Source: an uncultured Gammaproteobacteria bacterium (GTDB lineage Bacteria > Patescibacteriota > Microgenomatia > Levybacterales > UBA12049). Taken from it: a stretch of 64,000 nucleotides of DNA. Where the stretch lies: positions 465,313-529,312 of the forward strand of contig CAZDOJ010000001.1 of the NCBI GenBank assembly GCA_964507055.1, written 5' to 3'. Under the pieces are notes generated by a model that did no database searches, had not been told where the DNA came from, and was given only the letters and a program-made list of their open reading frames with translations. Both the position numbers and the translations under genes were made by a program. Below, one piece after another: positions 31,035 to 63,729 of this stretch (position 1 is the stretch's first letter; each line of letters opens with the position of its first letter).

Positions 31035-32369
31035 TTATTTCTTCCCTAATTTTTGAACAGCAATAAGTGGCAAAGCCAACGCATACAGTGCAGCATCCAA
31101 CCCAATCTTTTTAGACCTCTTTAATTGTCTTTGGTACAATGCATATGCCTCATGATATTCTAAGTCGCCATGTGCAATAAGAACATATAAAGGCGGTTGC
31201 CAGTACTTTGGGAAAAGCATGTGGAGTAATGTATCAGCTTTATCTTTCAAAACAAAAAACGGTGACCGACTCTTATCACGAAGTTCGATGAAATTCTCTT
31301 TCGCCAGATCCGCCATCAGGTCAGTATTTCGCTTGCGATTTTCCTGATACAAAGGAAATACTTTCTTTAAATCACCATCAAACTTGTCATATAATTCCGT
31401 AAACTTTAAACAATCATCAAATGCTGCACACATCCCCTGTCCATAAAAAGGAATAAAAGCATGAGCTGCATCACCAACCAAAAAGACAAAATCTTCATCA
31501 TGCCATGTAGGATTATGCAAAGTAACAAAAGTTCCAGTTTTTCTCTTTAAAAAGGCATCTGTAATTTCAGAAAGTAATGGCAGGAGATCAGGAAAATCAG
31601 ATTTTACAAACTTTTCAATCTTTTCAGGTGTAGTGAGTTGTGCAAAACTCTTTTCGCCTTCAAGTTGGAGATTGAACATCAGTGTGAAAGAATCGTCTGG
31701 ATTTGGGAAAGCAATTAAAAGCGAATCTGGTCTTGGCCATGTGTGAGTCGCACGAAGTCGGAGTTTCATTTCTTCGGTTAACTTTGGAGAAATATGTACT
31801 TCCTTATATCCCCAATCTTCAAATTCTTTTTCTCCATGATCCTTTTTATCTGATGATACATAAGATCTAATGACAGAATTAACCCCATCCGCTCCGATAA
31901 CTAAATCTGTTTTGACAGTAGTCTCTTTTTCGGAAGTTTTCTCCAAACGAATTTCTTTCTTCGTACTATCAACTGCTACACACTTTGTATTAAAGTGAAA
32001 TGTAATTTCAGGATATTTCTCAGCAGCAGATATAAGTGCACCATTTAATCTATTTCTATGAACTGTGTAAAGGATTTCATTTCCTCTTGCATCGAAAGAG
32101 TCATACACATTTTTTGTTTCGTAATGAGCGACATTCCCTTCGGCGATGATTGCAACATTTTTTGCGTCATCCCATATACCAATTTGTTTCATCGCTTCAA
32201 TTCCACGATAGTACAATGTTAAATTGAATGAACGACCAGAATCATAATTCTCTTCTCGAACATCAGGGCGATATTCATACACATCCACCTCATAATTCCT
32301 TTTGGCAAGACAGATCGCCATAAAACATCCCGCCATCCCAGCTCCAATAATTGAAACCTTTTTCTTCAT
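31035..32369 (-). CDS. FAD-dependent aromatic-ring monooxygenase, kynurenine 3-monooxygenase-like
   Basis: VSIIGAGMAGC (GxGxxG), DGVNSVIR, GDAAHAFIPFYGQGMCAAFDD. Confidence 0.75.
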   Translation of the reverse strand: MKKKVSIIGAGMAGCFMAICLAKRNYEVDVYEYRPDVREENYDSGRSFNLTLYYRGIEAMKQIGIWDDAKNVAIIAEGNVAHYETKNVYDSFDARGNEILYTVHRNRLNGALISAAEKYPEITFHFNTKCVAVDSTKKEIRLEKTSEKETTVKTDLVIGADGVNSVIRSYVSSDKKDHGEKEFEDWGYKEVHISPKLTEEMKLRLRATHTWPRPDSLLIAFPNPDDSFTLMFNLQLEGEKSFAQLTTPEKIEKFVKSDFPDLLPLLSEITDAFLKRKTGTFVTLHNPTWHDEDFVFLVGDAAHAFIPFYGQGMCAAFDDCLKFTELYDKFDGDLKKVFPLYQENRKRNTDLMADLAKENFIELRDKSRSPFFVLKDKADTLLHMLFPKYWQPPLYVLIAHGDLEYHEAYALYQRQLKRSKKIGLDAALYALALPLIAVQKLGKK

Positions 32370-32472: not shown

Positions 32473-33147
32473 ATGTTTCCGCTTTCAGATTCTATAAAAG
32501 CCAAAAGTTTTCCCTTTTTAAATTACCTTATTATTGGTATAACAATTTATGTTTTTATTCAACAGCTTATTGCCTCGGATCCTGAAGCATTTATCACTCA
32601 GTATGCATTGATTCCAACAGATGTTAATTTCAATGATTATCGAACACTATTACCTTTTGTAACATCAATTTTTCTCCATGGAGGGATTTTGCATATTCTC
32701 TCAAATATGTGGTTCCTTTTTGTTTTTGGAGATAACGTCAATGATCGATTGTCACCTATTGGATTTTTATTACTTTATTTAACAGCTGGTATTGTTGGTG
32801 GTTTGGCACAGTATGCATTTATGACAACTGAATCAATTCCTATGCTTGGAGCTTCTGGTGCTGTCGCGGGAATACTTGGTTGTTATGCCGTACTCTTTCC
32901 TCATGCAAAGATAAAGACACTCATCTTTATTGTATTTTTTGTAACATTTGTTGATATAAGTGCATTGCTCATGTTAGGTTATTGGTTTATTTTGCAATTG
33001 GCTTCGGGCGTTGGCTCTCTGGGTGATATGGGAAGTGGCGAAGGTGGAGTCGCGTATATTGCTCATATTGCAGGCTTCATCGTCGGTTTGATTTGGGGAT
33101 TTGCAAATAAAAATCGCGGAGAGGAGGCAAGAATTATTCATGAATGA
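32473..33147 (+). CDS. Rhomboid-family intramembrane serine protease
   Basis: GASGAVAGILG (GxSG) and AHIAGF (His). Start moved to MFPLSDS, 6 nt after TATAAT. Confidence 0.8.
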   Translation: MFPLSDSIKAKSFPFLNYLIIGITIYVFIQQLIASDPEAFITQYALIPTDVNFNDYRTLLPFVTSIFLHGGILHILSNMWFLFVFGDNVNDRLSPIGFLLLYLTAGIVGGLAQYAFMTTESIPMLGASGAVAGILGCYAVLFPHAKIKTLIFIVFFVTFVDISALLMLGYWFILQLASGVGSLGDMGSGEGGVAYIAHIAGFIVGLIWGFANKNRGEEARIIHE

Positions 33148-33358
33148 AAGTATGGGTAAGATGCTCATTATCATTGGCATCGTTATTATAATAGTAGGAA
33201 TTCTTTTTGTGGCATTACCCAAGCTTACTTCTTTACCAAAACTTCCTGGCGATATTTATATTAAGAAAGATAATTTCACATTTTATTTCCCTTGGGTTAG
33301 CTCACTCATCATTAGTGGAATTCTTTCCCTCATCTTTTATCTTTTCTTCAGAAAATAA
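33140..33358 (+). CDS. Small two-TM membrane protein (DUF2905-like)
   Basis: Overlaps the rhomboid stop (ATGAATGA). Hydrophobic IIIGIVIIIVGILF. Confidence 0.4.
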   Translation: MNESMGKMLIIIGIVIIIVGILFVALPKLTSLPKLPGDIYIKKDNFTFYFPWVSSLIISGILSLIFYLFFRK

Positions 33359-33415
33359 ACCTAGCAAACCTCAAAACTTGCACTGTATAATTAAATTAGT
33401 ATAATAGGTAAGTTT

Positions 33416-34240
33416 ATGGCACTTAATCCTGAAACACAACATCATGAAAGAAGAGACAAACAAAAAACAAGAGCTCTTGTAGTCTACAATAAATTAGAAG
33501 TAGTTAATTCTCATTCATCTCCAAACGATCAATGGCTCGGTTTAGCAAGGACCGCTGTAGGCGAAGGCTATGTTCCCTATTACCATAAGTATATCCGTAC
33601 AGAACGTGAGAAACGTACAAAAGGAAAGACAGTGAGTGCTGAATTAATTGGTAAATATGCTAGTGAAGCGTCGCATTTAATGTACGATGACTCTTATGGA
33701 CAAGGCGGTAGGTCAGAAACGATATGTGTTTTTGACAAAAGTGAAGTAAATGGAAAACATCTTGCAGGGACTGGTCGGTTAGTCTTTGGAGAAGAATATC
33801 CAACAGAAGTTATGCGTCCACTAGAGCTTATAGAACTTGTAGAACCTCGCATTGGATGGGATGAAGTACTTCAAGGAAAGCCTTTAAGTAAAGTTGCTGA
33901 ACTTGGAAGAATCGTTGTCCCAAAACAATATAGAGGAATCATTGAAAAAGATGGCGAAAAAAAAGACCAGACACAGCTAATAGCACATAGTCTTATTGAT
34001 GGTCAAAACGGAGTTGTTGAAGTAGCTCAGGATCACGACAGAGAAATAGTATTAATGGTCGCACAACGAAAGTTTGCAAGACATGCAGAAGGTACGCAAC
34101 TTGACTTTGGTGAGGGAATACCGATAGAATTACTCCCTGCAGCGAAAAGAGTTGTTAAAAAAATATTCCCTGGATACTGGAAGGATGAGGTTGATCCACC
34201 CAAACTATACGTTGCCCAAGTCCCGCCTAAAGTAGCATAA
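33416..34240 (+). CDS. Hypothetical protein, possibly an acyltransferase of the autoinducer-synthase / N-acyl-amino-acid-synthase GNAT-like fold
   Basis: 274 aa. ELGRIVVPKQYRG resembles the E-L-S-R-F-A-V block. Leaderless-type promoter TTGCAC..TATAAT upstream. 2-nt gap to the E1-like gene. Confidence 0.35.
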   Translation: MALNPETQHHERRDKQKTRALVVYNKLEVVNSHSSPNDQWLGLARTAVGEGYVPYYHKYIRTEREKRTKGKTVSAELIGKYASEASHLMYDDSYGQGGRSETICVFDKSEVNGKHLAGTGRLVFGEEYPTEVMRPLELIELVEPRIGWDEVLQGKPLSKVAELGRIVVPKQYRGIIEKDGEKKDQTQLIAHSLIDGQNGVVEVAQDHDREIVLMVAQRKFARHAEGTQLDFGEGIPIELLPAAKRVVKKIFPGYWKDEVDPPKLYVAQVPPKVA

Positions 34241-34242
34241 TT

Positions 34243-35493
34243 ATGGAAAGACCACGACATTTACATTTAGTAGGACGCCCATCAGAAAGATATATTGCTG
34301 CACGTGAAACTGATAGAGGTCGAGAGACAGAAGTACCCCAAGTTAAAATTTATAATCCAAATGTTGAAGAAGATCGTAGAGGTCTTATGCATTCGATTCT
34401 TACACTCCCTGAGAGAACACAGAGAAGACCATGGAAAGCAGATGTAAATGATCCGGAAGCCGTTTTTAATGAAGCTGTTGAGGAAGGAGTTTTCATTGAT
34501 AGATTTCCTGAATATCTTGAGGATAAAGCGAAGAGAAAGAAAGGAAAAGCACACTTTGATAAATATATTGGTCAGGACCCAGAACATCCTAAAGAATCAT
34601 ATCTTATGAACCGTTATAAAAGTTTTAATGATACTTGGGAAAATTCTCGAGTTGTTGAGTTTACTTGGGAAGAAGGAATAAAGCGTTATGAGAGAATTCC
34701 TGTTGAAGAAGAATATCATTGGCTCGTACATTTAAGTGATTCTATAATTATTCCGGACGAAGCACGAGAAGCACTCCCTAAAAAAAGAATTGCGTTTGCC
34801 GGTGCAGGTGTTGGAAGTTCACTTATCGAGGGTGCCGTACGTGCAGGTGCAAAAAACATTACTGTCGCAGATGGTGGAGCAATACTCTATCATGACTTAA
34901 ATCGCTTACAAGCACCCGATATTACAACTGTGGGAGATAATCATGCAGCGGATGCAATTAAAAAAGCTTATAAAGCAAATCCATATATAGATGCACAATG
35001 TTATACACAAAATATTACCCCTGATGGGAAAAATGGGACTGTTTCAATTGATACATTCCTTAATGGATCAGATATTGTTTTTGAGGAGATCGATAATCTT
35101 CAAATGAAGATATTGATTCGTGAAGCAGCACTTGCCCGTGGCATTCCAGTCATTATGGCAACCGATGTTGGTATGGGAACGATTATTGATTATCAACATC
35201 TTAAACCTGGTGACTCAACTGATTTGATTTTCCCTGGTCTAACTCGTGATGAATACAATAGAATTAAAAGTGGGGAGAGATTAACCTTTGAAGAGTCTAC
35301 AGATTTTGCAGTAAAGATGGTTGGTGAAGAAGTAAGTTATTGGAGAGATGGTGTGGAAAATGGATTACATTTCTGGTCTCAGACGGGAGCATCAGCAGAT
35401 GCTTCCAAATCCAAAGCTGCTCATACTTTGGCAAAATGGTCTATGGGCCAAGAAATCCCTCCAAGACAAGTATACCTTGAACCTGCAGCATAG
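34243..35493 (+). CDS. E1-like (ThiF/MoeB/UBA-type) adenylyltransferase with a novel charged N-terminal domain of about 180 aa
   Basis: RIAFAGAGVGSSLIEGAVRAGAKNITVADGGAILYHDLNRLQ (GxGxxG ... NLNRQ-like), then ..SDIVFEEIDNL..IPVIMATDVGMGTII.. No CxxC zinc motif. Confidence 0.65.
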   Translation: MERPRHLHLVGRPSERYIAARETDRGRETEVPQVKIYNPNVEEDRRGLMHSILTLPERTQRRPWKADVNDPEAVFNEAVEEGVFIDRFPEYLEDKAKRKKGKAHFDKYIGQDPEHPKESYLMNRYKSFNDTWENSRVVEFTWEEGIKRYERIPVEEEYHWLVHLSDSIIIPDEAREALPKKRIAFAGAGVGSSLIEGAVRAGAKNITVADGGAILYHDLNRLQAPDITTVGDNHAADAIKKAYKANPYIDAQCYTQNITPDGKNGTVSIDTFLNGSDIVFEEIDNLQMKILIREAALARGIPVIMATDVGMGTIIDYQHLKPGDSTDLIFPGLTRDEYNRIKSGERLTFEESTDFAVKMVGEEVSYWRDGVENGLHFWSQTGASADASKSKAAHTLAKWSMGQEIPPRQVYLEPAA

Positions 35494-35539
35494 TTAGCCA
35501 CTTGCATTTTCGTTAAAAATTCACTAAGCTCTGCATACA

Positions 35540-37666
35540 ATGACATTGGCAGTCATCTTGCTGACAGCATTTACTAATATACTGCTCGGAATAATTAGCT
35601 ATAAGAAGCAACCGAATAGTGCCACTAATCGATTACTTACTGCGCTAACTGTTATTTTTGCCCTCTGGACAGTCGCTAATTATTTTTCACTAAACTCATC
35701 CTCAGCGGACGCAACGCTATTTTGGATACGTGCTGTTATGTTTATTACGGCACCACTTGGTCCAACGCTTTATTTATTTATTAAAGCGTTCCCTCATCGT
35801 GAATTAGAGATCAATAAACCATTCCTTTATATATTAATTGGCTTAACTTTACTTGTTATGGGAATTGCATTTACCCCGCTAATCTTTTCAGGTGTAACAA
35901 TCACAGACCAAATCACCCCAACTCCAGCTCCTGGTATTGCCCTATTTGCACTTCTTTTTATGGGGCTTCCTATTATTGGAATCTTTGAGATTATTAAAAA
36001 ATATAAAAAAGCAGTTGGAGTCGAGAAGCAGCAACTAAAATTTCTGGTATTTGGAATAAGTCTCACATTTACTTTATTAATACTAACAAATTTTGTTTTT
36101 GTAGTACTTTTTAAACTTTCAAATCTTGTTATTTTCGGACCGATTTTTTCACTTATTTTTGTTGGATTTATTTTCTATGCAATTGTTAAACATCGTCTGT
36201 TAGCAATTCGATCTATTATTGCTCGGACGGTTACATATACTTTCCTTATTGCAGTACTTGCTTCAATTTATACACTTGGTGTTTTCTTTATTAGTAGATA
36301 TGTACTTCAGGAGGAATCAATAACGCAACAACGATTTACATCAGCACTTCTTGCAACATTTATTGTTTTAACATTTGAACCGATAAAAACAGCAGTACAA
36401 AAAGCTACCGATAGAGTCTTCTTCCGAGGGAAATATAATTCAGACGAACTCATCCTAGAACTAACTACAATTATTGCTTCAACATTTAAATTGAAAACAT
36501 TAACAACAAAAACAATGCAGAAGTTATTCTCTACTCTTCATATTGAAAAAGGATCATTTATCATTTATAGAAAACAACATAAGTTCTCAATCATAACTGA
36601 TGGTTATAAAAAAACTCCTACTTATAATAAAGAACTAATTCAACAAATATTTGCGTTACGAAGAATGGTAATCCTTGATGAGGAAAAAGATAAAGTTGTT
36701 AAACACCTTATGCAAAAATTGGGAATTGCTATTGCTGTTCCACTTTCAGAGAGAGAGCAAAATGAAGGATTACTCTTACTTGGGAATAAGAAATCAGGTG
36801 AAATATATACAGCACAAGATATAAAAGTACTTGAGATTTTTGGCCCAATTATTTCTATTGCGATACAGAATGCCAAAGCCTATGAAGAAATAAAAAGTTT
36901 TAATAAAACATTGAGTGACAAAATTACAATTGCAACAAAAGAACTACAAGAGTCTCACGTAAAATTACAAACACTCGATAAGCAAAAAGACAAATTTCTT
37001 GGAATGGCATCACACGAACTCAAAACGCCTATTACATCGATAAAAGCCTTTACTCAAGTTCTTTATAGAAGAGTTAATAAAGATGATCACCAAGAGTATG
37101 CTGCATTGCTAGAAAATATAAATACACAAACAGATAAAGTGACAAAACTGATTAATGATCTCTTAAATGTTAGCAATATCGAGGAAGGCAAACTTGTTTT
37201 AAAGAAAGAGATGTTTGATGCAAATGCATTAGCAGCAAAAACAATCTCAGATATCCAATACACAACAGACACACATCAAATTATTAAGGAAGGAAAGATC
37301 AAATCTCAAGTATTCGGTGATGCGGATCGTATATCACAAGTAATCGCAAACCTGTTAACAAATGCGATCAAGTACTCTCCAAAAGCCGATAAGCTTATTG
37401 TACGATTGGCTGAAGAGGGAAAGAATGCAGTATTTACTGTCCAAGATTTAGGACCTGGAATTGATAAGGAAGATCAAAACAAAATATTTGAACGCTTTTA
37501 TCGCACAAAAGAACACGAAGAAAGAAACATTGCAGGATTTGGACTTGGACTTTATATTGCATCGGAAATCGTCAAACGACACAAAGGAAAGATCTGGGTT
37601 ACCAGCAAAAAAGGCAAAGGTTCTGCTTTTAATTTTACAATCCCATTGTATAATCCCGCAAAATAA
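35540..37666 (+). CDS. Sensor histidine kinase with an N-terminal multi-TM sensor domain (orphan, no adjacent response regulator)
   Basis: 708 aa with an H-box SHELKTPITSIKAF and HATPase G-boxes (GFGLGLYIASEIVKRHKGKIWVTSKKGKGSAF). Confidence 0.85.
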   Translation: MTLAVILLTAFTNILLGIISYKKQPNSATNRLLTALTVIFALWTVANYFSLNSSSADATLFWIRAVMFITAPLGPTLYLFIKAFPHRELEINKPFLYILIGLTLLVMGIAFTPLIFSGVTITDQITPTPAPGIALFALLFMGLPIIGIFEIIKKYKKAVGVEKQQLKFLVFGISLTFTLLILTNFVFVVLFKLSNLVIFGPIFSLIFVGFIFYAIVKHRLLAIRSIIARTVTYTFLIAVLASIYTLGVFFISRYVLQEESITQQRFTSALLATFIVLTFEPIKTAVQKATDRVFFRGKYNSDELILELTTIIASTFKLKTLTTKTMQKLFSTLHIEKGSFIIYRKQHKFSIITDGYKKTPTYNKELIQQIFALRRMVILDEEKDKVVKHLMQKLGIAIAVPLSEREQNEGLLLLGNKKSGEIYTAQDIKVLEIFGPIISIAIQNAKAYEEIKSFNKTLSDKITIATKELQESHVKLQTLDKQKDKFLGMASHELKTPITSIKAFTQVLYRRVNKDDHQEYAALLENINTQTDKVTKLINDLLNVSNIEEGKLVLKKEMFDANALAAKTISDIQYTTDTHQIIKEGKIKSQVFGDADRISQVIANLLTNAIKYSPKADKLIVRLAEEGKNAVFTVQDLGPGIDKEDQNKIFERFYRTKEHEERNIAGFGLGLYIASEIVKRHKGKIWVTSKKGKGSAFNFTIPLYNPAK

Positions 37667-37717: not shown

Positions 37718-37927
37718 ATGAATATTTTAGAACGTCCAAAGAAAGGAAGAATAGTTGCAGGAGTCGCTGCAGCCATTGCAAACTACTTCCACATACGAGT
37801 TCTTTTTGTGAGAATTATCTGGATCCTTTTGTTTTTACCAGGAGGATTTCCTGGGCTTATTCCCTATCTTATTCTTTGGCTACTTATTCCATCAGAAAAA
37901 GACCACACTGAATCTGCAAAAGCATAA
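37718..37927 (+). CDS. PspC-domain membrane protein
   Basis: 69 aa (RIVAGVAAAIANYFHIRVLFVRIIWILL). Confidence 0.6.
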   Translation: MNILERPKKGRIVAGVAAAIANYFHIRVLFVRIIWILLFLPGGFPGLIPYLILWLLIPSEKDHTESAKA

Positions 37928-37963: not shown

Positions 37964-38914
37964 ATGAAAAGTGATCCGAGAAAAGCATTCTTTATTATTA
38001 ACCCTGCAAGCGGTCAAGGCGATCCTAAGAAAAGAAAAACTGAAATAGTTCGAATTGCAAAATCGCTTGGATGGAACGGAAAGACATTACAAACCACCCG
38101 TACAAAAGATGCCAGCATATTAGCTGCACAAGCAATCAAAGAAGGTGCAAACCATATCGTTGTATGCGGTGGTGATGGAACAATCATGGAAGCATTACAA
38201 GCGGTCAGTAAAACCAAAGTAGTACTTGGTATCGTTCCATTAGGGACGGGAAACTTATTTGCACAAAATCTCGGATTACTGGGATCAAAAGACGATGCTA
38301 TTCGTCGAGCACTTTTTGGAGTTGTACAGAGAATTGATATCGGAAAAGTTAACGATACATTTTTTGCAATAATTGCAGGCATTGGTTTTGATGCCGAAAT
38401 TATGAAAGAAACAAATCGTAAACTGAAGAATAAATATGGATTCTTTGCATATCTCTTGAGTAGTGTAAAAGCATTTAATAAAAAATCGGGAGTATACGAG
38501 ATATCACTTGATAATAAGCCTTTCAAAAGATATAAAGCAAAAAGTATATTAGTTGCTAATATGGGGAAGATTCAAGCTGGAATTGAAGCTGTTCCACATG
38601 CACATCATCAAAGTGGAGTCCTCCATATAGCAGTCATTCAAGCGTCAACATTTCGTTCTTTCTTAAGTATCCTGGGAAATGCACTTTTGGGTAAAGTACA
38701 ACAGAGTCCACATTTTACACTCATGCAAGCAAAAACGATACAGATACGATCTCTTAAAGGAGCAAAATCTTATCAATGTGATGGAAATCATTTTCCCCCG
38801 ACTTCTTCCCTGTTTGTGGAGATATTTCCAAAATCAGTATCAATACTTGTTGAACCAAAGCTCAAACAAAAAGTGGGATCGACCAATATGTTCGCATCAT
38901 TGTTGCAATTTTAA
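37964..38914 (+). CDS. Diacylglycerol/lipid kinase (DAGK_cat; YegS/BmrU-like)
   Basis: FFIINPASGQG, VVCGGDGTIMEAL, GIVPLGTGNLFA. Confidence 0.8.
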   Translation: MKSDPRKAFFIINPASGQGDPKKRKTEIVRIAKSLGWNGKTLQTTRTKDASILAAQAIKEGANHIVVCGGDGTIMEALQAVSKTKVVLGIVPLGTGNLFAQNLGLLGSKDDAIRRALFGVVQRIDIGKVNDTFFAIIAGIGFDAEIMKETNRKLKNKYGFFAYLLSSVKAFNKKSGVYEISLDNKPFKRYKAKSILVANMGKIQAGIEAVPHAHHQSGVLHIAVIQASTFRSFLSILGNALLGKVQQSPHFTLMQAKTIQIRSLKGAKSYQCDGNHFPPTSSLFVEIFPKSVSILVEPKLKQKVGSTNMFASLLQF

Positions 38915-38941: not shown

Positions 38942-39175
38942 ATGTATTATTCACACCCTTGTTCATATTGCGGAAAGATATTCTACACATATAACAGTGA
39001 CCGAAGCAAGGCTGCAGAAACCCTCTACTATGGAATAAAAAAACATCTTGTAGATTATGGTGAAGACGCGAAAGAGCATGAGCTTGACGATGGTCCTTCA
39101 ATGGATGTTGCACAGATAGATGCATCGATGACCGAATTAGCTGCTGCTCCAGCTGGCGGATACGAACTCAAATAG
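38942..39175 (+). CDS. Small hypothetical protein with an N-terminal CxxC
   Basis: 77 aa. Its 3' end overlaps the convergent GT1 gene by 8 nt. Confidence 0.3.
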   Translation: MYYSHPCSYCGKIFYTYNSDRSKAAETLYYGIKKHLVDYGEDAKEHELDDGPSMDVAQIDASMTELAAAPAGGYELK

Positions 39176-61935: not shown

Positions 61936-63729
61936 ATGCGCAAAGTATCTCTACCTATAAGCCGTACCATGAAATTCCCTATCCGGCGTCCATGGATACC
62001 ATATATTGTGCTTGTAATCTCTCTTTTCATAACTATCTTAGCAACTCTTTTTGTGATGCGGAGTGCGGAAGAGCGAGATCGATTGCGTTTTCAAAGTGCG
62101 GTTGAACAAACCCAAAATACTATTAACAATAGAGTCGAGACCTACATCGCATTACTCCGAGGCGGAAGCGGACTCCTAGCAGCTCGATCAGATATCACAG
62201 ATGAGGAATTCCGTCTATTTGTAGAACGACTGCAACTCACACAACGCTATCCTGGAATTCAGGGAATAGGTTATGCTCAACGAGTTTTCGCAACTGACAA
62301 GGAAAGCTTTGAAGCATATGCCAAAAGTGCATTAACTGAAGCATTTAGTATAAATCCCGAAGGTGAACGTGATGAATACTACCCTGTTCTCTATCTCGAA
62401 CCACGAGATTACTTAACAAATAGTAAAGCACCTGGATTCGATGGGTTCTCTGATCCAATTAGAAGAAATGCTATGGAACGAGCACGTGATACAGGTCTGA
62501 GTGCTGCTTCTGGAAAAGTATTACTTTCGCAAATTGATAATGAGAAAAACCGTGCAGGCTTCCTCATTTATTTGCCAGTGTATCAAAGTGGAGAAGTACC
62601 AGAAACTATTGCCGAAAAACGCGAACAGATTCAAGGATTTATTTATAGTCCATTCAGAGCAGACACTCTTTTTAAAGGAATCTTTGGGGATCAATCACAA
62701 CTACTTATAAATTTTCAGATCTATGACGGAATCTATGTAAATGAGGCACAGTTACTTCATGATTCACGAACAGGGAGCAGTAATGCCGGAAATGAAGCAA
62801 ATCCCAGATATACCTCAAAACGAACAATAGACATTGCTGGTGAGAAATGGACAATCATGTATGAGAATGATTCGCAATTTGAAAGCCAATCACAACGCGG
62901 ACTTGCTCCATTTATTTTGGGTTTTGGCTTGGTTATAAGTGGTGTCCTTTTCATACTTAGTCGATCGCAGTTTTTGGCTAGAACTGCAGCAGAACAAACT
63001 GCTGTCCAATTACTAAGCTCACAAAAAGATTTGCAAAAAGCGATCGGTATGAGAGATACCTTTATTTCAGTAGCGTCGCATGAATTGAAAACACCTGTAA
63101 CGAGTCTGAATGTTTACCTTGAAGTCATGTTGCGACAATTCCAAAAGGAAAAGAATGAAAATGCAGTGCAGAGTCTCACTAAGATGAAAAAGCAAATAGA
63201 TAAACTAACAATACTCATTCATGACTTACTTGATGTTACGAGAATTCAAACCGGTAAACTTGCATTTGATGAAGAACTCTTTGATCTTTCAGAGGTTGTC
63301 CATGATATCGTAGAAAACACAAAACCACTCGCAAACAAGCATGAAATCATCATTGAAAAGAATGAATCTATTGAATTATGGGGAGATAAAGATAGGCTTG
63401 GACAAGTTATCAGTAACTTCCTCACCAATGCTATCAAGTACTCTCCTGATGCAAATAAGATTATCGTCAGAAGTGAACGTACAAAAAATGAAGCACAGGT
63501 TTTTGTTAAAGATTATGGTATTGGTATAGAGCAATCACACCTGAAGAAAATATTTAATAGATTCTATCGTGTGACAGATAGGAATGTACAAACATTCCCA
63601 GGATTAGGTATTGGATTATATATCTGTCATGAAATAATTAAACGTCATGGAGGAGAAATCAAAGTAGAAAGTAAAAAAGGCAAAGGTTCAGTCTTTAGTT
63701 TCGCTATCCCGATAAAGAAAAAAAGATAA
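61936..63729 (+). CDS. Sensor histidine kinase with a periplasmic CHASE-like domain (orphan)
   Basis: TM, a periplasmic domain of about 300 aa, TM, then H-box SHELKTPVTSL and HATPase GLGIGLYICHEII..GKGSVFSF. Start moved downstream of TTGACC-16-TACAAT. Confidence 0.8.
   Translation: MRKVSLPISRTMKFPIRRPWIPYIVLVISLFITILATLFVMRSAEERDRLRFQSAVEQTQNTINNRVETYIALLRGGSGLLAARSDITDEEFRLFVERLQLTQRYPGIQGIGYAQRVFATDKESFEAYAKSALTEAFSINPEGERDEYYPVLYLEPRDYLTNSKAPGFDGFSDPIRRNAMERARDTGLSAASGKVLLSQIDNEKNRAGFLIYLPVYQSGEVPETIAEKREQIQGFIYSPFRADTLFKGIFGDQSQLLINFQIYDGIYVNEAQLLHDSRTGSSNAGNEANPRYTSKRTIDIAGEKWTIMYENDSQFESQSQRGLAPFILGFGLVISGVLFILSRSQFLARTAAEQTAVQLLSSQKDLQKAIGMRDTFISVASHELKTPVTSLNVYLEVMLRQFQKEKNENAVQSLTKMKKQIDKLTILIHDLLDVTRIQTGKLAFDEELFDLSEVVHDIVENTKPLANKHEIIIEKNESIELWGDKDRLGQVISNFLTNAIKYSPDANKIIVRSERTKNEAQVFVKDYGIGIEQSHLKKIFNRFYRVTDRNVQTFPGLGIGLYICHEIIKRHGGEIKVESKKGKGSVFSFAIPIKKKR

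Follow-up and report, generated by a model that had tools for sequence, protein, structure and literature searches.

A patescibacterial gene module in which a putative N-acyl amino acid synthase and a ThiF-like protein are encoded beside a 7TM histidine kinase

The subject of this analysis is a small gene module in a 64-kb window of patescibacterial DNA (64,000 nucleotides of contig CAZDOJ010000001.1, assembly GCA_964507055.1, being the whole stretch that was analysed), a part of a chromosome that is low in GC (37%) and has ordinary tRNAs. The first gene of the module (33416–34240, + strand) encodes an acyltransferase-like protein of 274 amino acids (aa), referred to here as X, and the second (34243–35493, + strand) encodes a 416-aa ThiF/E1-like protein, referred to here as E1. 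Both open reading frames (ORFs), and the gap of 2 nucleotides (nt) between them (TAA tt ATG), are as described in an earlier account of this DNA made from the letters alone (the sequence-only reading). E1 comprises a charged N-terminal domain (residues 1–179; 34243–34779, + strand) and a Rossmann/adenylation core with a helical C-terminal part (34780–35493, + strand), the latter being a predicted ATP-dependent carboxylate activator (cyclase) for the product of X. A sensor histidine kinase with the Pfam architecture HisKA_7TM–GAF-like–HisKA–HATPase_c (35540–37666, + strand) is encoded 46 nt 3′ of E1, and no terminator-like site was found between these two genes in a sequence scan.

X and its ThiF-like partner

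X matched no Pfam family at E ≤ 0.1; neither of the two profiles that the sequence-only reading had suggested for it (PF00765 and PF13444) gave a match, nor did FeeM (PF21926), and NCBIfam profiles also gave nothing useful. A sequence search of the PDB returned only a marginal GNAT match (E 0.34). The structural models of X and E1 rest on 8–9 sequences. The X model, built from 8 (predicted local distance difference test (pLDDT) score 77.8), has a predicted GNAT fold whose best PDB matches are N-acyl homoserine lactone (AHL) synthases and FeeM, with generic acetyltransferases scoring at most 10.9 over shorter alignments. The same outcome is reported for the characterised enzyme TyzA, for which its authors found AHL synthases and FeeM to be the closest folds. 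An exhaustive HMMER search with an X profile yielded 73 cluster representatives, 72 of which were scanned against Pfam: seven of these remote relatives matched PF21926 FeeM (best 1.9e-06), nine matched PF13444 Acetyltransf_5 and one matched the LuxI-type PF00765 (E 0.04). Some X relatives also weakly match the TIGR03694 exosortase-associated acyltransferase model. The block quoted by the sequence-only reading, ELGRIVVPKQYRG, is present in X, and the features conserved over the X set are an ELGR(I/F)xV...(Y/F)R block, D92, R121, E162, R165 and a C-terminal YW..P motif. The predicted fold thus bears out the resemblance to GNAT-like autoinducer synthases and N-acyl amino acid synthases that had been noticed in these letters, and the best reading of X on this modelling is that of a FeeM/LuxI-type N-acyltransferase that has diverged very far. 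Since a carboxylate-activating partner is present, we favour a free amino acid product over S-adenosylmethionine as the acceptor of X, which makes it a putative N-acyl amino acid synthase.

E1 matches PF00899 ThiF at E 1.5e-18 (67 bits, above the curated cut-off) over residues 170–311 only, and this match, together with the adenylation fold, confirms the Rossmann core that had been assigned to the protein. The quoted motifs are also in place (GAGVGS at residues 187–192, ADGG..HDLNRLQ at 209–223, and IPVIMATDVG), and there is indeed no CxxC motif, C253 being the single cysteine. The best curated model for E1 is that of the Rv1355c family (NCBIfam NF005901), which scores 61.6 bits against a cut-off of 476 over model positions 79–229; MoeB and ThiF models give 15–43 bits against cut-offs of 152–376, and fusion relatives of E1 reach 98–116 bits on the Rv1355c model. 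In these comparisons TyzB, OxzB and TrzS were represented by the curated Rv1355c model, with tool-derived Rv1355c-type sequences as a proxy. Judged by these profile scores, E1 appears closest to the Rv1355c/TrzS-type oxazolone cyclases, with which it scores best, and not to MoeB/ThiF.

The N-terminal domain of E1 is 37% charged, has no Pfam family, and is predicted by AlphaFold to be a folded unit of helices and small beta elements, with a pLDDT of 86–94 over about residues 31–160. It has no counterpart in the PDB, where the alignments of E1 covered at most 233 of its 416 residues with a query-normalised TM-score (TMq) of at most 0.47, and alignments to MccB and PaaA (204–221 residues) take in the core only and leave this domain unaligned. 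Its full length has a homologue in the region between the domains of two fusion proteins (P0037 and P0082, below). Rv1355c-type ThiF proteins have an N-terminal extension to which about residues 130–179 (VEFxW...GRY, a beta hairpin and a helix) can be aligned; a further N-terminal region of about 130 aa sets E1 apart from the Rv1355c-type proteins compared. No other part of E1 varies as much as this domain (25–53% identity). The sequence-only reading had presented it as a novel charged domain of about 180 aa. The charge and the lack of a Pfam family stand, but the domain is not unique to this protein, being common to the whole family of X-associated ThiF proteins, to which it is specific, and including the GNAT–ThiF fusions. 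Since in those fusions it physically connects the two enzymes, its role is probably to dock X or to pass on the substrate.

P0037 (641 aa, Levyibacteria) and P0082 (692 aa) are single polypeptides in which an X-like domain is joined to a full-length E1 homologue (27–30% identity; E 4e-33 and 3e-55). The X–E1 order on the same strand is also that of oxzA and oxzB. On account of the fusions, the 2-nt gap and this oxzAB-like gene order, the most economical reading of X and E1 is a two-step small-molecule pathway.

Such pathways are known from the oxazolone synthetases, namely OxzA/OxzB of Pseudoalteromonas rubra, TyzA/TyzB/TyzC, TrzA/TrzS of Mycobacterium (Rv1356c/Rv1355c) and the NasY clusters (stieleriacines), in which the gene for an N-acyl amino acid synthase lies directly upstream of a ThiF-like gene on the same strand. 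The ThiF half of TrzS (which is Rv1355c) is a cyclase that uses ATP to turn N-acyl-tryptophan into an oxazolone, and TyzB and the ThiF half of OxzB carry out the equivalent conversion of N-acyl-tyrosine (PMC10404671, PMC12856293, 10.1101/2020.06.11.147165, PMC12596934). The present module is like these systems in that a FeeM/AHL-synthase-like GNAT gene lies upstream of a ThiF-like gene for which Rv1355c provides the best model, in that the ThiF-like protein is predicted to take a small molecule, not a protein, as its substrate, and in that fused and split forms both occur. It is unlike them in having no fused or adjacent nitroreductase-superfamily flavin oxidase, and unlike the Rv1355c family in the replacement of a Lys by His, the loss of the Arg finger in the window copy, and a score far under the cut-off, which calls for a ThiF domain together with a fused or adjacent FMN oxidase of the Acg/nitroreductase type. 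Furthermore, the oxazolone synthetases come from Proteobacteria, Actinomycetota and Planctomycetota, whereas this module was found only in Patescibacteria and is always accompanied by a 7TM histidine kinase.

A tblastn search of the window found no Acg/nitroreductase-type oxidase, and no PF00881 match lies closer than about 8 kb to the pair in those loci for which precomputed Pfam annotation was available, which number nine (L001, L002, L003/4, L006, L007/8, L009, L011, L012/13 and the contig-end L014). With no oxidase, the expected product would be a reactive acyl donor, a saturated 5(4H)-oxazolone, or else the adenylate would be diverted to another nucleophile. The expectation of a saturated end product follows from the order of events in TrzS, where cyclisation comes before oxidation and a saturated cyclised intermediate builds up when oxygen or the oxidase is limiting (PMC12856293). 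In a separate observation, two Joint Genome Institute (JGI) metagenome proteins (P0042 and P0090; 692–744 aa) join an X-like acyltransferase domain to a flavoprotein (PF01565 FAD_binding_4) that carries the annotation '4-cresol dehydrogenase'. The oxidase partner differs here from the nitroreductase type, and p-hydroxybenzyl (tyrosine-like) substrates are hinted at in that branch.

Alanine-rich tails were seen on both proteins. The C-terminus of X is PKVA, PKAA, AKAA or RKAA in five loci (34232–34240 in the window; L002, L003, L006 and L007), though the X sequences are 25–33% identical, and E1 ends in Ala-Ala (PAA, MAA, KAA, EAA or DAA) in five of nine clusters (35485–35493 in the window; P0002–P0004 and P0008). 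Neither the L001/L009 group nor the fusions have such tails. By analogy with ssrA, the tails may act as a C-terminal degron that confers a short half-life on both enzymes.

Kinase linkage and mosaic variation

A HisKA_7TM kinase of 701–728 aa is encoded 46–85 nt after E1, or after the fusion gene, in all ten of the loci with downstream DNA (the window, L001, L002, L003/4, L006, L007/8, L009, L011, L012/13/16 and L015), and the upstream neighbour varies among these same loci, being a rhomboid, BacA or receiver gene. These kinases are orthologues along their entire length (39–89% identity), and their adjacency persists at E1 identities of 27–30%. The named relatives belong to Candidatus Levyibacteriota/Patescibacteria, and the E1 family was found only in Patescibacteria, where public annotation calls its members 'ThiF family adenylyltransferase', 'molybdopterin/thiamine biosynthesis adenylyltransferase' or 'hypothetical protein'. 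The relatives were collected by a word-indexed protein search (9 and 7 clusters), which missed divergent alleles such as the E1 of L003, and by degenerate-pattern scans that gave three loci in GTDB genomes and three in JGI metagenomes; the independent loci are few, about 10 with 3 distant relatives.

A related kinase also accompanies more canonical ThiF proteins. L017, from a Candidatus Saccharibacteria metagenome-assembled genome (CAYXDY010000001.1, 2919–9972), is a seemingly canonical split TrzS cluster with a HisKA_7TM kinase, in which a ThiF part and an Acg-type FMN oxidase score 209 and 169 bits on the corresponding halves of the Rv1355c model. The other genes in this cluster encode a Glu/Leu/Phe/Val dehydrogenase, a 499-aa protein and a 266-aa protein without a Pfam family. 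Because the L017 cluster contains no FeeM-like gene, the acyl-amino acid may arise there in another way. L019 consists of a receiver, a ThiF protein, a 292-aa protein and a related kinase; the 292-aa gene, which lies between those for ThiF and the kinase, was considered as a candidate X and found not to be an X homologue. Stand-alone receivers that are related to one another flank L011, L012 and L019, all without a DNA-binding output, and no receiver-domain (response regulator) gene was detectable in the 64-kb window. As for what the kinase might sense, the passages found that name the HisKA_7TM domain mention no ligand for it. Two further observations concern additional kinases. The window encodes a second histidine kinase, at approximately 63007–63714, which is 43% identical to the core of the first. 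In L006 (8606–11153) and L009 (4414–6892) the trio is adjoined, downstream in one locus and upstream in the other, by genes for a cytoplasmic GAF-HisKA kinase and a 429–454-aa protein with a weak nSTAND3 NTPase match, a pair that is absent from the window locus.

Comparison of individual loci reveals a mosaic. The window and L003 are collinear with 73–80% DNA identity, their flanking proteins being 87–91% and their kinases 89% identical, and yet DNA similarity is lost exactly over the E1 gene (34251–35500), where the proteins are 37% identical (35% in the BLASTP local alignment). Between the window and L006 the kinase is 75% and the E1 core 70% identical, against only 30% for X, and L001 and L009 show the same pattern (kinase 75%, E1 70%, X only 29%); in both of these pairs the DNA ceases to be similar across X and the beginning of E1. 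In L007 the E1 protein groups with those of the window and L006, and the kinase groups with that of L002. Conservation thus rises from X (25–33% in almost all pairs) through the E1 N-terminal domain (25–53%) and the E1 core (40–74%) to the kinase, where conservation is greatest in the 7TM region (the window and a fusion locus are 54% identical there, as compared with 32–35% in the catalytic domains). Co-diversification of the kinase sensor domain in the manner of a pherotype was looked for and not found, the 7TM region being the part that changes least. A foreign origin for X and E1 is likewise unsupported; their GC content at third codon positions (GC3) is like that of their neighbours, which suggests that the exchanges took place within the lineage. 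In these comparisons X and E1 behave as exchangeable cassettes beside a constant sensor, and their cassette-like replacement between genomes that are otherwise 73–80% identical in DNA is a striking case of local diversification.

A possible signalling pathway and its alternatives

Taken from sequence and synteny, our preferred reading is that X, E1 and the kinase constitute one module in which the synthase of an acyl-amino-acid-derived signal is encoded beside its receptor kinase, and we consider the case for it to be evenly balanced. In the first step, as its fold and family suggest, X would N-acylate an amino acid with acyl-CoA or an acylated acyl carrier protein as the donor. Homology, gene order and the fusions then point to E1 as the enzyme that would adenylate the free carboxylate with ATP, after which ring closure by the amide oxygen would yield a 5(4H)-oxazolone (azlactone). 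This cyclisation has been shown biochemically for OxzB, TyzB and TrzS (PMC10404671, PMC12856293, 10.1101/2020.06.11.147165, PMC12596934). Given the missing oxidase, the product would stay saturated and reactive, or another nucleophile would capture the adenylate. Because the synteny is strictly conserved, the product, or a membrane derivative of it, could be what the 7TM input domain of the kinase reads, and the kinase would signal in turn through a stand-alone receiver, encoded adjacently in the fused loci and elsewhere in this genome. Researchers working on the oxazolones already suspect a signalling role for them.

LuxM–LuxN, AinS–AinR and CqsA–CqsS are pairs of an autoinducer synthase and a membrane receptor kinase, and the arrangement proposed here would resemble LuxM/LuxN or CqsA/CqsS. 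As in those pairs, a synthase gene stands beside that of a polytopic histidine kinase without an extracellular domain, and the X fold is nearest to AHL synthases. There is, however, no sequence relationship to LuxM or CqsA, the pathway has an additional ATP-dependent ThiF step, the kinase is not a hybrid, and ligand sensing is hypothetical in this case.

A more far-reaching proposal, which we put forward tentatively and think rather unlikely, is that Patescibacteria (the candidate phyla radiation, CPR) possess a chemical signalling system of their own, in which a labile non-oxidised azlactone or a related activated species is sensed by the conserved 7TM domain, while the synthase cassettes swapped between strains make variants on a common recognised head group. 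If true, this would provide the first receptor for oxazolone-type metabolites and the first ligand class for the HisKA_7TM domain, and would mean quorum- or partner-sensing in ultra-small episymbiotic bacteria. What the oxazolones do physiologically is 'a major unresolved question' for their discoverers, to which the module offers a concrete, testable lead: its sensor kinase is tied to the synthase over a deep divergence that takes in both the oxidase-less clusters of the Levyibacteria type and the cluster with canonical ThiF and oxidase in Saccharibacteria. The enzymatic kind (an N-acyl amino acid synthase with a ThiF-like cyclase) is known, having been described in 2020–2025, and the finding is not categorically new in this respect; the module would correspond to the opening two steps of oxazolone biosynthesis. 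What appears new against the literature searched, as judged from sequence comparison, is the N-terminal domain, the lack of an oxidase, the altered ATP site, the restriction to Patescibacteria, the constant 7TM kinase and the swapping of cassettes. No report of N-acyl-amino-acid or oxazolone biosynthesis in Patescibacteria was found in that literature.

The same enzymology might instead yield a product that is not a signal, such as a structural lipoamino acid or another modification of the envelope, or a metabolite directed at a host or competitor, with the kinase regulating the genes or sensing the envelope. We regard this as possible but improbable. The mosaic pattern weighs against our preferred reading and for this alternative: a constant 7TM region beside variable X and E1 is unlike pherotype loci, where the receptor input co-varies with the signal, and is a genuine argument against a simple matched pair of signal and receptor, and hypervariable X and E1 with a conserved 7TM region would fit an arms-race effector better than such a pair. 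Genes for rhomboid, BacA/UppP, PspC and DAGK-type lipid kinase proteins also recur nearby. PF13444, which some X relatives match, is a family that also contains lipid N-acyltransferases, and N-acyl tyrosine derivatives have been reported to be antimicrobial. On the other hand, the envelope genes other than the kinase are not conserved with the pair (compare L002 and L007 with L003 and L012), while linkage to the kinase outlasts that to every other neighbour at deep divergence, and adjacent receivers that have no DNA-binding output would be unusual for a simple regulator of a biosynthetic operon.

The nucleotide-binding site of E1 bears on a different alternative, namely that adenylation has been lost or changed, so that E1 would be a pseudo-enzyme scaffold for X or would use another nucleotide or nucleophile, and no oxazolone would be made. 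For the alignment of this site, the AclA and L017–L019 sequences were tool-derived, and that of the MoeB reference was entered by hand. The motif that supplies the Arg finger, SRN(R), reads LSDS in the window E1, which thus has Ser at the relevant positions (S165 and S167), and it is lost as well in L007 and P0004; the E1 model is poorly determined here, with pLDDT below 50 at residues 165–167. In the G-x-N-K motif, the split family has an invariant His (H234 in the window) in place of the Lys, and the fusions have Gln. The L003 allele, which is 33–38% identical to all others, also departs from the consensus in its NR motif, where HDLNRLQ becomes HDFRSQP, and carries a 4-residue insertion in the hairpin of the N-terminal domain. 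AclA of Tenacibaculum discolor (PDB 9EGB/9EGC, 2025), with which the comparison is structural only, differs from E1 in being 265 aa long without the N-terminal domain and in keeping the canonical SRNR and NK motifs. These substitutions are what a degenerate enzyme might show, but most family members retain the first Arg of the SRN motif, and the residues of the GxGxG loop (G187, G189 and G191), D210, R221, E281, D284, K289 and R293 are invariant or nearly so in 11 very divergent sequences, which argues for selection on the nucleotide site. We take D284 to align with the Mg-binding Asp of MoeB, and this type of residue has been mutated in TrzS as D217A. Similarly, the His that stands in for Lys is itself invariant, suggesting functional replacement rather than decay. 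The motifs EE(I/V)DN and M-x-(T/S/G)-D, the second following the strand IPVIM, are common to E1 and the bona fide Rv1355c-type ThiF proteins of L017, L018 and L019. We therefore think that a lost or altered activity is distinctly unlikely. A ThiF cyclase without an oxidase and with altered residues in its ATP site would be relevant to the enzymology of ThiF-like proteins in general.

The sequence-only reading had compared the architecture with MccB-type adenylation of a peptide or metabolite, or with a non-canonical conjugation system; in the form weighed here, E1 would be an MccB/PaaA-type enzyme that adenylates a ribosomal peptide, or part of a non-canonical protein conjugation system of the ubiquitin-like (Ubl) kind. 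MoeB/ThiF, MccB, PaaA, GrcB and IndF do share with E1 a Rossmann adenylation core and the ATP-dependent activation of a carboxylate, but they act on the C-termini or side chains of proteins and peptides, and the module is without the features of the MoeB or MccB type, such as a Zn-CxxC site, RRE or peptide-clamp domains, and a carrier or precursor gene. As that reading had itself observed, Ubl, E2 and JAB partners are missing: no Pfam match to any of them was found in the window genes scanned (29–40 kb), nor within 8 kb in the nine annotated loci. The search that it had proposed for a short precursor-peptide ORF or a Ubl in related genomes revealed no conserved small ORF, and the gaps within the module, of 2–59 nt and 46–85 nt, are too short to hold one. 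The C-terminus of X (PPKVA/PKAA) was considered as a substrate for E1 and rejected; it is internal in the fusions, and some members of the family have no Ala-Ala tail. E1 has no catalytic cysteine, its sole cysteine (C253) being Gly in a fusion, the N-terminal domain is unmatched by MccB or PaaA, and the fusions with a FeeM-like acyltransferase speak for a small molecule as the substrate. Membership of a known defence system is also rejected, since PADLOC gives only weak matches, which cover the Rossmann loop alone. The peptide and conjugation readings are consequently very improbable.

Finally, that E1 is an ordinary sulfur-carrier adenylyltransferase of molybdopterin or thiamin synthesis is barely credible, for despite its generic PF00899 membership, the presence of ThiF and MoeB among its structural matches and the public annotation as a 'molybdopterin/thiamine biosynthesis adenylyltransferase', it has no CxxC zinc site, conserved cysteine, rhodanese domain or MoaD or ThiS neighbour, the ThiF and MoeB models score under that of Rv1355c with all of them far below their cut-offs, and it carries an extra 180-aa domain and an obligatory link or fusion to a GNAT protein, with a kinase following.

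Promoter and neighbouring genes

A promoter-like element (TTGCAC, a 16-nt spacer and TATAAT; 33377–33404, + strand) ends 11 nt before the ATG of X. The sequence-only reading had proposed a leaderless-type promoter here. The two hexamers stand, and the element is invariant in three loci, but it lies below the threshold of a consensus scan, with only three of the six bases of its −35 element matching. The string TTGC(A/T)..TAGTATAAT..GTAAGTTTATG is identical in the window, L003 and L006, and the promoter element and GTAAGTTTATG are kept in L006 despite a completely different X allele. The sequence is thus promoter-like, and transcripts of X would be near-leaderless or have a short AGGT leader.

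Downstream of the kinase, which bears out the multi-TM sensor kinase that had been predicted, Pfam searches likewise bear out the predicted genes for a PspC protein (37718–37927) and a DAGK/YegS lipid kinase (37964–38914). Upstream, a 72-aa DUF2905 membrane protein (33140–33358, + strand; E 3e-22) is encoded between a rhomboid gene and X. Of the loci, only the window, L003 and L006 were seen to have this gene, whose end is conserved in the latter two, and the rhomboid–X gap of 80 nt in L001 leaves no room for it. A gene for a PF01494 FAD-dependent aromatic-ring monooxygenase-like protein lies 1 kb upstream of the module on the opposite strand (31035–32369, − strand); it is 89% identical in L003, and the other loci lack it. 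Membership of the module was considered for the genes encoding the FAD monooxygenase, rhomboid, PspC and DAGK proteins and rejected, as they are not conserved with the X–E1 pair. It is conceivable that the monooxygenase serves as a tailoring enzyme for an aromatic acyl-amino acid in the window/L003 lineage only. On the 3′ side of the lipid kinase gene, a 77-aa ORF without a family match (38942–39175, + strand) has an N-terminal HPCSYCGK motif, and genes of comparable size (83 and 77 aa) are called in that position in L003 and L006.

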